A stretch of 64,000 nucleotides of DNA, taken from positions 1 to 64,000 of the IMG/VR virus record IMGVR_UViG_3300019763_000001. One strand, given 5' to 3'. The DNA is from a virus. Each line of letters opens with the position of its first letter. The first letter of the stretch is position 1. The position numbers and the translations under genes were made by a program. The notes beneath the pieces are model-generated. The model searched no databases and was not told where the DNA came from. It saw nothing but the letters and a program-made list of their open reading frames with translations. Below, one piece after another: positions 17,221-62,021 of this stretch.

Positions 17221-18857
17221 CGATACCCCTCCTATGTCCAAATGGAACATTCCATTGATATTTTCCAGTTTTTTTATTTCTCTTAACTGTCAAAATAGTT
17301 CTTGAACCATTTATATGAGTTACGATATGTGAAAAGCTCCAACTACAAGGGCCGTTTGCATAATCGAAGTTTTTAACATCACCTGTCACCCCAGATGTGT
17401 ATGAACCGAATATAATGCCCGCAACGTGAGTGTGACCTGTGTTAGTTTTTTCACCCATCTTAGCAAATTGATCAGGTGATCCTTTTGAACCATTTGAACC
17501 CAAATGACCATGATGACCAAACTCAATCCCCGACACAACGAATGACTGATCCTTTCTTAGAAATGTTAAGTTATGTGCAACTGCTTCATAGTGACCACCC
17601 ATAAGCTCTTTGACAGAATACTCAAAAGCGTTAAAATAACGTCTTTCTGCAATAGATTGTAGCATCTCCATCTGTAGCTGTAGGTATATCAAAGCGTTTT
17701 GTGGATCTTTCCTGAAATCGTAAGATTGATTACATAACCACTTTTCTATAGCCTCATCGTGATTCGATCTAACCACAATTGTTTCCGTTTCGGATCTACA
17801 ATATGATTTGAGTAAATCAGTTGCTTTTTCTAAATCATCTAATACTGAATCATTACCTTCATGATACATTTTAAATCGTTGTAGGTGATCATTTATATTG
17901 TGATGATTTCTAGCGTTAAATGAAATTGTATCGTGCATAAACTGATATAAAGGATTCAACGTATCTAAAATATCAAAGTTTATTTCATGCTCCTCATCAT
18001 CACTATTTTCAGTGTGAATGTCACCCCAGTTGATTGCGCTGATGATATTTTTGTTATAATCGACTGTCATACCATCTTTCGTATAGACTGCATCCATAAA
18101 CATGATATCACCTGTATCTTCATCCCCATGAATTTGATAAGCGAACCACGTTCCATCGTTTTGGATTGTTACATAAAGTGCTGCATATGAATGAAAATTC
18201 CTAGCTGCTTTTTGCCCAGCTTTCTTTTCTATGTAGTTACGTGTTGTGACGCATCCTGTAGCGTACATCATTTTTGCTTCATCATTCTTCTTAGTTGGGC
18301 ACGATTTAAGCCTAACTTGACAACTTGGGAATATCCCACTAGCAGTTCTGTTGTATATATCAAATCCAGATAGAGGATTAGTAGCAGTTGGAATGATGTT
18401 TAATTCTCCATTCCACACTAAATCATCAGTTACTTGCAAAGATTCATTTCTAATGTATTTTGTGATAAGTGGATCATACCACAAATCATCATCTTTACTT
18501 GAGTTCTGAAAACCGTTTTTATTGTATGTGAATGTACCAACAATCAACTCAGCGTCATTTTCATTAATAAAAGTTTCCAACGCACCTAGAAATCCTCTAT
18601 GAACATTGGTATTGTTTTGTGCTGATACAAATACATAAGCGCCACCAGTTAATTTTCCAGAGTTCTTATATGGTGACTCAACCACACCAGCAGATAAGCT
18701 AGGTTCAAAACCAATCTGCTTTGCATAAGCTAGCCCTCTATGAATAGTCCTCTCTGAAAAGTTAAAGTGATTACTATAAATCTCGTATAGACCAATGATT
18801 TTTTCTTAGTGTTAACAGCTCTGCTAAAAATCCCTCATCTTCGTAAACTTTAGCCAT
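17207..18857 (-). CDS. T5 A1-like HTH + metallophosphoesterase nuclease; recoded at TAGT 18776-18773 (joined product 549 aa)
   Basis: FVSAQNNT, GDIH, SNHD, HGHLGSNGS, GHTH motifs; 27-codon leader joins in +1 frame at TAGT. Confidence 0.75.
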
Positions 18858-19926
18858 TTATATTCCTCTTAAGTTCGCCCATTTGAGCTTTGCTTTAAAA
18901 CCGGAGTATACGTTGTTGACAATTATTTGCAATGTTTGCATATGGCCGTGATGTTGAACCATTTCATTTATGTCTTTTCCAACAACGTTATCAGGAAATA
19001 GAACGACTTTACATCCATCATCAATAGCTTTTGTTATTTTTTTGCATATATCTTTGTTTCTGTATTGATTATCAAAAATGTAAATTGTGTTGTCGTATTT
19101 AGTTTTTGTTAGATTGCTGTCGCATGTAGCTATACAATTAATCGGAATGAATAAAGAATCCAACGGACCTTCTACGACGAATACAGGCTTGTTTTTTACT
19201 AGCCTATCCTCACCGTATATCTTATCATCACTAGCATATCTTTTGATAGTTATGTATCGTAAAACGTTAACGCCATTTTCAAACGATCTTCCTTGCACAG
19301 CTTTGAATATACCATCTTTAGTCCACATAGGAATAACCAATCTAGGCTCAACTTTGATGTTACTAAGCTTTTCTTCATTCAAATCTTTAGAAACTTGTCT
19401 CGCTAAAGCGTTGAAATCTTCAGCGAAATAAAGTAAAGACATAGCTTTTGTATTGAAACCCCTATTTTTAACATATTCCTTAGCAAAATGACCATCTTTT
19501 AAGTCATTTATTGGTGTTAAAAGATCAAAAACATTATTAGGGTACTTCCCATCAACAACATCATTCAATATATCGACTGGCTTTGTCTCTTCAATTTCCA
19601 TCTTAATCGATTTATCTGCGTTACCTTCACCTGTTTCTTTAAACACAGCGAATCTGTATTCAGCCCAAAGATCATTTCTATAAAGATATATGAATTTACC
19701 TATTGAACCACTTTCCCCACAATTATGACAATTGAACATGAATGATCCGTTGTATGAATAAATTCTAGAATCTAGTCTTATATTGATTTTTGTGTGAGTC
19801 ACCACAAATGGGGCATCTACCATACCATGTATCTTCTTTGGTTTGATGCCATCTCTGAATACCATAACCAATCTGTTGTATAAATTGCATGTCAACCCAT
19901 TTAGGGATTGGTGTATATTGCCCCAT
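18858..19926 (-). CDS. gp61: DNA primase; recoded at TAGA 19767-19764 (joined product 355 aa)
   Basis: CPICGDS before and CHNCG after the amber; RLVIP, VVEGPLDSLF, KDINEM. Confidence 0.92.
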
Positions 19927-19939
19927 TTTTCCTCCTTTG

Positions 19940-20905
19940 TTACGCAGCCATATCTGGTTTATTTTTAAAGTCTGGATATGGATTGTAATTATGTAGCGCC
20001 ACATCTTCAAAGTCAAGAGAAACAACATCTTCTAGTGTTAGAAGCTCTTTGTTGATTGTTATGCTAGGTGATGATCTATCCGTTGGTCGTTCAATAAGCT
20101 TTTCAACAAATCCTTGTTCAGGATTAAATACAGCAAGTTGATTTTGATAGATATGTGGTCTAGGTGCTGCAATCTTCAACACGCCTGGCTTACAGTCATA
20201 TCCATTGTCTCTCATATACTTTGAAAACACCTCCAATTGAAAAGCGTACCCAGCAATATTGAATGGACCACCGTATGGTACATCCCACGATCTAATCAAC
20301 ATCGTTCCATGTAGATATTCGCCATCATATGCAACATCAAATGAGCAATGACAACTTGGTAGAGCTGCTGCCCATATTCCTTCTGGGTGCCAAAACGTAA
20401 ATCGAGTACGACGATCGTATGGATTTGTTTTGAGTAGGTGTAAGAGCATAGCAAGCTGATCAACTGTTTTTGTTCCATCATCATGCACTGTGATAAAATC
20501 ATGCAAGCCATTATACTGTTCATAATCGCTTGGGTGCACAATCATCGATCTAAGCTGCACAGGATACGAACGACCTGAATCTCCCTCTTCCAAATCATAT
20601 AAACCAACTTTATCAAGCGCTTCTCGTGTTGTATTACCTTTCCAGATTGTGATCCCCTGATCCTCTAAAATCTTAGTATTAGGATCACCACCAAAGAACC
20701 ATTTATTTTCTTGCACGATCCAGCGAAATGGTTGTTTTCTCATTGTGATGAGCGGAAAGCTTCCATCTCTCATATCAAAATGATAGTCGTGTGCTAAAAA
20801 GTCTTGAATCGTTCCATTGCCATTTCTAACCCCATTATTCAGAACCTTACCTCGTTCTAAAATGTTAGTTAGTATTGATTTGTAAACGTCATCATGTTTA
20901 CTCAT
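19940..20905 (-). CDS. thyA: thymidylate synthase
   Basis: ALPSCH, RSWDVPYGGPFNIAGY, HIY motifs. Confidence 0.92.
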   Translation of the reverse strand: MSKHDDVYKSILTNILERGKVLNNGVRNGNGTIQDFLAHDYHFDMRDGSFPLITMRKQPFRWIVQENKWFFGGDPNTKILEDQGITIWKGNTTREALDKVGLYDLEEGDSGRSYPVQLRSMIVHPSDYEQYNGLHDFITVHDDGTKTVDQLAMLLHLLKTNPYDRRTRFTFWHPEGIWAAALPSCHCSFDVAYDGEYLHGTMLIRSWDVPYGGPFNIAGYAFQLEVFSKYMRDNGYDCKPGVLKIAAPRPHIYQNQLAVFNPEQGFVEKLIERPTDRSSPSITINKELLTLEDVVSLDFEDVALHNYNPYPDFKNKPDMAA

Positions 20906-21529
20906 AGATTGTATTCTCCTTCCATCATCGTATCAGTTGAGTGATTAATGAACTCATCTAACATACCATTAACAATTTCGATGTCACTATCATTGTGTAG
21001 CGTATACTGAGGAATTCTGTTCGTGTTTATATATGAACGAGAGTCGTTATACTTCTCAAATGATGTACCATCTCTGTATAAGTTTACTAATAGATAAACA
21101 TGGTTGCAACCATTCGTTTGTTCTTCAACAATATCAACAAATCGATCAAGCTCTTCAATGAACCCAGAATCGGTTATATAGAAGATATCTTCATCTAAGT
21201 TGTAAGCATCACAATTAATGATGCTCATTGCTGTTGCTTTACCGAAATAATCCTTACCAAAGTTGGGTTTAATGACCTCTTCGCTAACCTTTATCAACGC
21301 TTGACGCATAGATAAACCATCAAATTCAACCATTGGTTTATTCTTATTTTCTTGAGTATACAATTCATTCCACTTATCAATTGGAAAGTTGTAGATTCTA
21401 GCAAGTCAGCTCAATTAGCTTTTGCTTGAACATGATAGTATGACATTCCACATATGCATCAGAATTGTACTTACCAATAAAATCTTTACCACTTTCTGGT
21501 GGCCCATTTAAAAATACAAACGTTGCCAT
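20902..21529 (-). CDS. deoxynucleoside monophosphate kinase; recoded at TAGA 21400-21397 (joined product 208 aa)
   Basis: P-loop NGPPESGKD in the leader; RQALIKVSE..KPNFGKDYFG, ITDSGF, DSRSY downstream. Confidence 0.85.
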
Positions 21530-61721: not shown

Positions 61722-61727
61722 CTTGAG

Positions 61728-61757
61728 ATTATAAGGTATATGATTATGCGTTGTCAA
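61728..61757 (-). promoter_or_regulatory. consensus sigma70 promoter firing into the non-coding region
   Basis: TTGACA-18 nt-TATAAT. Confidence 0.8.
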
Positions 61758-61768
61758 CTGTTTTTTTG

Positions 61769-62021
61769 TTAAGATTTTCTTAGACTAAATCTGTTTTGAT
61801 GGGCCATTTTGCTTGCAAAGTTGAAATCTTCTGTACTATCTAGAATTATCACTAATAGCTTGTTCACTTTTTTGAAATGTATGTCTTTGTATCTAGCTTT
61901 CGGTAATTTTGATTAGATTGTTGTATTGCTTAGTTATCTCTTCATTGCTGTGAAGGTTGAATTTTTTTATTTTGGTATCTGCTATGTTAAGTAGTCTTTG
62001 GAAGTCTTTAAAAGTTGTCAT
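61769..62021 (-). CDS. hidden 83-aa basic protein; recoded at TAGA 61895-61892
   Basis: GAGAG SD, 42 codons, TAGA, 40 codons, TAA. Confidence 0.55.

Follow-up and report, generated by a model that had tools for sequence, protein, structure and literature searches.

The DNA considered here is the first 64 kb (positions 1 to 64,000; hereafter the window) of virus record IMGVR_UViG_3300019763_000001 (IMG/VR), which represents an uncultured T4-like phage and has 155,493 bp with a G+C content of 35%. At 18 sites in 17 genes of this genome, ten of them in the window, an open reading frame (ORF) runs from its start codon into TAG and is continued in the +1 frame directly past a fourth base, which is mostly A. 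It is quite probable that the phage reads UAGA, and on rare occasions UAGU or UAGG but not UAGC, as a single serine, most likely by means of a 95-nt tRNA of its own. The direct observations are the geometry of the sites and its statistics, the presence of one residue for each four bases, the richness in serine of the corresponding alignment columns, and a tRNA-like gene together with its computed fold. All of the evidence is computational and concerns a single lineage.

TAG/+1 junctions in the window and in the whole genome

The ten TAG sites proposed in a preliminary description of the window were all recovered; they lie on the minus strand, each behind a leader of 10-53 codons that begins with ATG (Table 1). 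The same description gave every leader a Shine-Dalgarno (SD) sequence, which holds for nine of the ten, where an SD-like motif is present; by the criterion applied here there is none at the gene with the site at 61895. From one base past TAG onward, 40-720 codons follow in the +1 frame before it closes, and nine different codons precede TAG at the ten sites, as had been claimed. Upstream of the junction the +1 frame is blocked at a distance of 3-18 codons in nine cases (3 codons in the deoxynucleoside monophosphate (dNMP) kinase gene and in the gp55-like gene) and of 65 codons in the primase gene; because it is closed so near to the junction, the shift must fall at or just before TAG.

Homology spans the junction in NrdA, NrdB, gp45, the primase, the dNMP kinase and the RuvC-like gene, as judged from profiles or solved homologues. 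PHROG 47 covers residues 27-354 of the joined primase, with the junction at residue 54, PHROG 139 covers residues 1-194 of the dNMP kinase and PHROG 159 covers residues 1-182 of the RuvC-like protein; comparison of the dNMP kinase with PDB gave no match. The leaders do contain indispensable motifs, a point made in the preliminary description, namely the kinase P-loop (GPPESGKD), the GIDYS motif of the RuvC-like protein and the first half of the primase zinc ribbon (CPICGDS), the second half of which (CHNCG) lies in the body. In the A1-like gene (PHROG 1745, residues 53-529) and in gp55 (PHROG 234, residues 26-206) the junction is outside the profile match, which begins past it, so that it is the geometry of the ORFs and the SD starts that support these two joins. 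In the A1-like protein, the leader and the first part of the body appear together to resemble one helix-turn-helix.

Eight of the ten sites in the window are well supported. The site at 54916 is ambiguous: both parts of the gene score as coding (8.8 and 20.5), and since an ATG lies two codons past the junction, two small genes could be present instead. The site at 61895 is weak, with low coding scores (3.5 and 2.0) for the two parts. No homologues of either hypothetical gene were found.

For the whole genome, every stop codon on both strands was scanned for an SD-led upstream ORF joined to a coding downstream ORF that has no start of its own. Fifteen TAG/+1 joins were obtained, in 12 of which the body has 164-859 codons, together with a handful of weak candidates at TAA, at TGA or in the -1 direction; those of the latter that were examined are ordinary gene boundaries, such as the overlapping stop and start in TAATG. 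After inspection the genome holds 18 joins in 17 genes, as UvsX has two, and all of them are +1 and all occur at TAG. The frameshifts are therefore not random in direction or stop type, since no comparable TAA, TGA or -1 class exists, and an intact second copy of an affected gene was found nowhere in the genome. Both outcomes leave the multi-gene system suggested in the preliminary description unrefuted. Candidate joins at 36505 (an ordinary start), 33742 (antisense) and 113318 (in a repetitive region) were dropped.

The fourth base is A at 15 sites, T at two, G at one and C at none, compared with a genome-wide background of 38% for A after TAG (p about 1e-4). Thirteen kinds of codon precede TAG over the 18 sites, and 17 of the sites fall at codons 11-57. 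Past the tabulated TAGs the 0 frame closes within 1-19 codons and the +1 frame continues for 39-859 codons. Among ORFs with 150 codons or more, the stop is TAA in 81, TGA in 44 and TAG in two. Mean local folding energy is -7.0 at the sites versus -6.6 at 600 control coding positions (p=0.44); a hairpin common to the 18 sites was rejected, strong local hairpins being seen only at individual sites such as 54916 and 122454.

Genes for DNA replication, recombination and nucleotide supply account for 12 of the 18 sites, and gp55 adds a late-transcription factor. The virion block (65-115 kb) holds a single site (p about 0.009), and the genes for head, portal, sheath, terminase and fibres are unbroken.

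Table 1. Genes carrying TAG/+1 junctions and apparent true TAG ends (codons listed as leader + unit + body)
Feature	Location (strand)	Four-base unit	Structure or remark
A1-like / DNA transfer protein gene	window 17207..18857 (-)	18773..18776, TTA-TAGT-AAT	27-codon leader + TAGT + 521 codons
DNA primase gene	window 18858..19926 (-)	19764..19767, TTC-TAGA-ATT	53-codon leader + TAGA + 301 codons
dNMP kinase gene	window 20902..21529 (-)	21397..21400, TGC-TAGA-ATC	43-codon leader + TAGA + 164 codons; leader counted from the ATG having the best SD
gp55-like late sigma factor gene	window 21531..22200 (-)	22167..22170, ACG-TAGA-GCT	10-codon leader + TAGA + 211 codons
gp45-like sliding clamp gene	window 38002..38710 (-)	38629..38632, AGC-TAGA-ATT	26-codon leader + TAGA + 208 codons
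RuvC-like resolvase gene	window 39201..39774 (-)	39714..39717, AAT-TAGT-AAA	19-codon leader + TAGT + 170 codons
NrdB gene	window 40189..41293 (-)	41206..41209, GAC-TAGA-ATC	28-codon leader + TAGA + 338 codons
NrdA gene	window 41349..43617 (-)	43512..43515, TGG-TAGA-ACT	34-codon leader + TAGA + 720 codons
Hypothetical gene, ambiguous	window 54745..55048 (-)	54913..54916, GGT-TAGA-GAG	44-codon leader + TAGA + 55 codons
Hypothetical gene, weak	window 61769..62021 (-)	61892..61895, AGC-TAGA-TAC	42-codon leader + TAGA + 40 codons
Small virion protein gene		genome 80599	fused form matches PHROG 473 across the junction
Function-unassigned gene		genome 115980	TAG/+1 join
Dda gene		genome 117429	
PHROG 4756 member		genome 122454	
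UvsX gene		genome 132141 and 133036	one gene, two sites
gp41 gene		genome 133718, TAGG	
gp43 gene		genome 145136	
Apparent true TAG end	window 510-513 (+)		
Apparent true TAG end	window 525-528 (-)		
Apparent true TAG end	window 54744-54747 (-)		
Apparent true TAG end	window 59318-59321 (-)		
Apparent true TAG end	genome 65724		
Apparent true TAG end	genome 123013		

The NrdA gene appears in public gene calls as a truncated product of 732 aa. Its TAGA unit opens a perfect 16-nt palindrome (TAGAACTATAGTTCTA; window 43500-43515, minus strand) with a local fold of -17 kcal/mol. In the nearest IMG/VR relative (L002:4379-5337) the NrdA match is broken by about 950 nt in the same frame, probably by an intein; intein domains are present in several other NrdA homologues.

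Serine-rich columns and a candidate reader tRNA

Alignments run across the junction without a gap in NrdA, in NrdB (against E. coli R2), in gp45 (against the RB69 and T4 structures) and at UvsX site 1, from which it follows that four bases correspond to exactly one residue. Deep alignments were built for three junctions. The junction column of NrdA holds Ser in 48 of 56 homologues, that of UvsX site 1 holds Ser in 36 of 38 sequences and Thr in the other two, and that of NrdB holds Ser in 23 of 51 and Thr in 19 of 51, with Ser in both of the nearest relatives. Ranked by richness in Ser, each column is within the top 2.1-2.3% of its own alignment (product of the three fractions about 1e-5), and Arg occurs in none of the 145 homologue sequences at these columns. 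Judging from the aligned residues, serine is thus indicated as the amino acid for which the UAGA unit would stand.

A tRNA with an 8-nt loop containing UCUA, which the preliminary description had suggested looking for, has a counterpart outside the window in a 95-nt tRNA-like element at genome 137805-137899 (plus strand). The element is intergenic, flanked by a small zinc-ribbon ORF and the following gene, in the replication block between the plus-strand genes gp41 and gp43, and it lies within the second most GC-rich 90-nt segment of the genome. The minimum-free-energy fold of the isolated element is a five-arm cloverleaf. In both the minimum-free-energy and the centroid fold the anticodon loop has 8 nt (AUUCUAAA) and is closed by CUGG/CCAG; within this loop, A-U-UCUA-A-A, the UCUA complements UAGA, i.e. 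15 of the 18 units. The acceptor stem has 8 bp including one U-G pair and is followed by U73-CCA. The D arm can be folded with a 6-bp stem and a 3-nt loop (GGG) or with a 5-bp stem and a 5-nt loop; a C is bulged from the 6-bp anticodon stem, and the variable arm consists of 9 bp and a loop of 3 nt. The elbow contact could be made by GG of the D loop and UC of the T loop. No other element of the genome combines NCCA with an 8-nt loop that contains UCUA and is closed by 4 bp and with an acceptor stem of 7 bp at the spacing of a tRNA; for this minimal set of criteria, 200 simulated genomes average 0.03 matches each. A CCA-ended element with a 7-nt CUA loop was not found in the genome scan.

The element looks like an allo-tRNA, and U73 together with the long variable arm would suit it to charging by seryl-tRNA synthetase (SerRS). 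Allo-tRNAs have a 12-bp acceptor branch split 8/4 or 9/3, a long variable arm, G73 or U73 and a predicted serine identity, and some are found in phages (Mukai et al. 2017, PMC5389517); further traits of the group are a long anticodon stem and a D arm whose long stem carries a very small loop (a tetraloop, as in selenocysteine tRNA, tRNA-Sec) (PMC5389517). The likeness of the phage element to an allo-tRNA or (8/4) tRNA-Ser lies in the variable arm and U73, and perhaps also in the 8-bp acceptor stem with its short T stem and in the D arm and anticodon stem, which may be Sec-like and long, respectively. That paper mentions no 8-nt anticodon loop, four-base reading or frameshifting (PMC5389517).

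Around the tRNA-like gene, a perfect 15-bp helix can form between leader and trailer (genome 137790-137914, L001:1291-1415; AAGAAAGGGTTTTGG ... CCAAAACCCTTTCTT); it takes in the encoded CCA and extends the acceptor stem, with U73 as its sole bulge. The helix could be a processing signal of the RNase III type, or could keep the tRNA inactive until it is excised. Two small ORFs are located upstream, one for a very basic product of 37 aa (genome 137472-137585, L001:973-1086) and one for a zinc-ribbon-like product of 67 aa with four cysteines (genome 137576-137779, L001:1077-1280). An arrest-peptide leader was not seen just upstream of the tRNA-like gene.

With default settings ARAGORN calls just two tRNA genes in the genome, a canonical tRNA-Arg(UCU) at 154433-154510 and a tRNA-Met(CAT). 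The latter, being in the terminal repeat, occurs twice in the record, once at either end (window 52-129 and genome 155422-155493). A 745-aa ORF next to the gene for the major head protein (window 63269-64000 and on to genome 65506, minus strand) has matches to homing and HNH endonuclease families in each half.

Weighing of the evidence and of other explanations

Several observations weigh against a serine-inserting UAGA decoder of this kind. For about seven genes (examples in Table 1) the stop appears to be a true TAG, in several cases within TAGA, and the tRNA would extend their products unless decoding is inefficient or dependent on context; the predicted +1 extension is mostly 1-11 codons, and 43 codons at window position 510. 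At shallow junctions, i.e. those with few sequences compared and variable columns, residues other than Ser are found (Gly in gp45 of T4 and RB69, Ile in T4 Dda, Tyr in E. coli NrdB (R2)), and one relative has Gln at the gp41 junction and Thr at the polymerase junction. The preliminary description had looked to relatives either for conserved units or for ordinary triplets in their place: the nearest relatives (40-53% identity) do have unsplit genes, the two nearest with Ser at the NrdB column, whereas TAGN sites are carried by no diverged relative. Close relatives were absent from IMG/VR, a phage collection and a set of 5.8 billion proteins, in which the best matches had 53% (NrdA) and 40% (UvsX) identity. 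As for the tRNA-like element, its T arm is irregular, with 4 bp and a bulged A, and the loop GUCGGGA, in which G replaces both T54 and A58; an alternative pairing has five pairs with a G-A mismatch and a 6-nt loop. ARAGORN in default mode leaves the element uncalled and at relaxed thresholds returns noise alone, and the Rfam models for tRNA and tRNA-Sec do not match a 146-nt segment even at E<=10. Homologues were found neither by blastn against phages nor by a search of metagenome contigs for the loop-plus-T-loop pattern, and the lack of a homologue leaves the fold without covariation support; a 16-mer of the anticodon arm has 13 matches in IMG/VR, none in a tRNA-like context.

The broken frames might instead stem from errors of sequencing or assembly, or from a defective genome whose genes are pseudogenes or are split and restart internally, and the genes at 54916 and 61895 could indeed be pairs of small genes. 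Yet three sources agree in sequence. A k141 contig of 155,445 bp from ENA has zero mismatches to the record over 31349-53574 (22 kb), the sole difference being one copy of a 27-nt tandem repeat (window about 48860-48885, unit GAATTGTCGCTGTTATCTGAATTGTTT), and over 31349-48888 (17.5 kb) the record is matched with 100% identity by a Logan contig from SRR7051568. Both contigs include the sites at 38632, 39717, 41209 and 43515 without a difference, and for UvsX and gp41 the fragments delimited by the sites occur with identical sequence in JGI/IMG, Logan and ENA. Random errors would not be uniformly +1, create TAG each time, fall at codons 11-57 in 17 of 18 cases and favor A. Against pseudogenes stand the required motifs in the leaders and the completeness of a genome that has no spare copies: the record carries direct terminal repeats (IMG/VR class), and its completeness is 100% (CheckV). 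An origin in error or decay is accordingly regarded as very improbable. The gene set of the phage is T4-like and includes gp43, gp45, gp44, gp41, primase, UvsX, Dda, gp32, RegA, gp55, topoisomerase II and NrdAB as well as a major head protein, portal, sheath and terminase. A loss of one base at the RNA level, by editing or polymerase slippage, is considered even less probable than error or decay; base removal from the mRNA had been offered in the preliminary description as an alternative to four-base reading, and nothing was found in its favor. The sites have no homopolymer run, and whichever base of TAGA is lost, the result is AGA (Arg) or a stop, never Ser.

A genuine shift might also take place without a dedicated tRNA, if termination at UAG is poor and, during the resulting pause, the +1 codon that overlaps it is occupied by an ordinary tRNA: tRNA-Arg(UCU) at AGA or a host tRNA-Ser at AGU. 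In yeast Ty3 a slow codon allows a tRNA to bind the A site out of frame, in Euplotes stop codons direct +1 shifts, UAGA is a weak termination context in E. coli, and the phage itself encodes a normal tRNA-Arg(UCU). Such a shift predicts Arg at 16 of the 18 sites, but Arg is absent from the three Ser-rich deep columns, and the tRNA-Arg(UCU) is explained by ordinary codon usage, AGA being the commonest Arg codon of the phage (864 of 1839). Neither a common P-site codon nor a local structure assists the shift, and the element with the UCUA 8-nt loop would be left unexplained, so that this route is considered unlikely. Three other mechanisms were rejected: cis-programmed +1 shifts of the prfB, Ty and Euplotes types, because the sites share no slippery P-site codon and no stimulatory structure; in-frame reassignment of TAG, because the frame changes to +1; and bypassing of the T4 gene 60 type, for which no take-off-matching codon is found one base downstream.

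It is also conceivable that the shift is real and the reader a different one, such as an altered host tRNA-Ser or another phage product, the UCUA element being some other structured RNA with a role in processing or termination. That tRNA detectors and Rfam miss the element, that it sits inside a 15-bp helix and that it has no homologues would all be in keeping with this. In contrast, a cloverleaf with NCCA and the exact complement of UAGA is expected 0.03 times per genome even with the D, variable and T arms uncounted, and the loop matches that of laboratory-evolved UAGN decoders; the probability of another reader is put as low as that of a shift driven by ordinary tRNAs. What the preliminary description had proposed, four-base reading by a trans-acting and probably phage-encoded factor, is supported by the 18 sites, the single residue per unit in the gapless alignments, the Ser-rich columns and the candidate tRNA with its UCUA loop.

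Related systems, proposed mechanism and significance

Shifts to the +1 frame that recur in several genes are known from mitochondria of Perkinsus, at AGGY and CCCCU, and from Euplotes, at AAA-UAR. In glass-sponge mitochondria the shift occurs at UGG_A (PMC2267718). These organellar and ciliate systems share with the phage the recurrence in several genes, the use of a single rare or stop codon and the absence of a correction at the RNA level. They differ in having 2-19 sites (organelle genomes) or a slippery AAA (Euplotes) and no demonstrated dedicated four-base tRNA, whereas the codon preceding TAG in the phage is arbitrary and a gene for a UCUA tRNA is present. Phages with genetic code 15 (TAG=Gln; bioRxiv 10.1101/2021.08.26.457843, PMC9523058) likewise have in-frame TAG, a phage tRNA, a host with the standard code and a proposed control of timing; there, however, TAG is an in-frame triplet, the tRNA has a 7-nt CUA loop and the recoding is found mainly in late, structural and lysis genes, in contrast to the +1 shift, the 8-nt loop, the Ser-like residue and the replication and early-to-middle genes seen here.

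The closest parallels to the anticodon loop come from the laboratory. Selections for UAGN decoders in recoded E. coli without RF1 converged on an 8-nt loop with U33.5 before CUA, whatever fourth base was selected, and the evolved decoders were efficient at UAGA and UAGG, weak at UAGU and inactive at UAGC (PMC4764823), a preference with which the fourth bases used by the phage agree. The pyrrolysine tRNA (tRNA-Pyl) variants of Wang et al. 2016 (PMC4764823) resemble the phage system in the 8-nt loop, UCUA, a competition with RF1 that is proposed for the phage, and the avoidance of UAGC, and some carry the 5' arrangement UGG / AU / U-CUA, which compares with UGG-AU-UCUA-AA-CCA in the phage arm. 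UAGA decoding has also been engineered in worms and mammalian cells. Laboratory UAGN tRNAs are products of selection, insert unnatural amino acids and act at one reporter site, whereas the phage system is natural, extends over about 17 native genes and apparently inserts Ser. The frameshift suppressors sufJ, sufD and SufB2 share an expanded anticodon loop and a four-base advance (PMC7803779), and SufB2 pairs as a triplet in the A site and shifts to +1 during translocation (Gamper et al. 2021, PMC7803779). They are mutant alleles that rescue frameshifts at sense codons, whereas the tRNA of the phage and its stop-based sites appear to have co-evolved for normal expression. In the QCODE system (PMC11705086) quadruplet codons in several genes likewise create dependence on a dedicated tRNA; it was engineered in E. 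coli for biocontainment, whereas the phage system may or may not serve that purpose. A full-text literature search returned only engineered UAGA decoding, suppressor mechanisms, in-frame recoding in phages and organellar +1 shifts, and no published natural multi-gene UAGN system.

Decoding in the phage may be pictured as follows. UAG and the next base would be decoded as one serine, the ribosome advancing by four bases. The 95-nt tRNA, with its loop 5'-A-U-UCUA-A-A-3', would read UAGA after being charged by the SerRS of the host, for which it would be recognizable by its long variable arm and U73; since core domains of Pth2, release factors and class-II synthetases were not found in the phage, it presumably relies on the host enzyme. 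Pairing could involve the triplets CUA and UAG in the A site with a +1 shift at translocation, as work on SufB2 suggests; since A is so strongly favored at the fourth position, that base would seem to remain relevant. At each site the tRNA would contend with RF1, a win giving the full-length protein and a loss a peptide of 10-56 residues. As the sites are close to the 5' end, where failure costs a short peptide only, decoding in competition with termination would be valve-like.

The unit would then be a natural 65th codon, obligatory for about 15-17 genes, and the tRNA a single master key that gates, or "encrypts", replication and the late switch; this wider interpretation is likely, if somewhat less so than serine decoding itself. 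The genes that would depend on the unit include those for the polymerase, the clamp, the helicases, the primase, the recombinase, both subunits of ribonucleotide reductase and the late sigma factor. Because the sites are 5'-proximal in genes for replication, recombination, deoxynucleoside triphosphate supply and late transcription and hardly occur in virion genes, a probable role of the tRNA is that of a gate, by dose or timing, on replication and on the change to late genes; gp45 serves late transcription as well in T4. We infer expression of the tRNA, its charging with serine, its efficiency in decoding and its gating role from the sequence patterns described above.

The components of such a system, expanded-loop tRNAs and stop codons recoded by phage tRNAs, are known, and their natural combination would be a first. 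To our knowledge, the accepted natural variants of the genetic code all alter the meaning of triplets, and four-base decoding by expanded-loop tRNAs is confined to laboratory suppressors and synthetic biology. Standard gene callers truncate or split genes of this type, so that genomes of this kind are mis-annotated as having broken core genes. If the proposed reading is true, evolution has made use of codon size besides codon meaning, and a UAGA decoder together with its contexts has already been optimized in nature, which would be useful for genetic code expansion. It would also be a natural counterpart to containment by engineered quadruplet codons, and for the phage it would add a further layer of expression control in which one tRNA serves as the gate.

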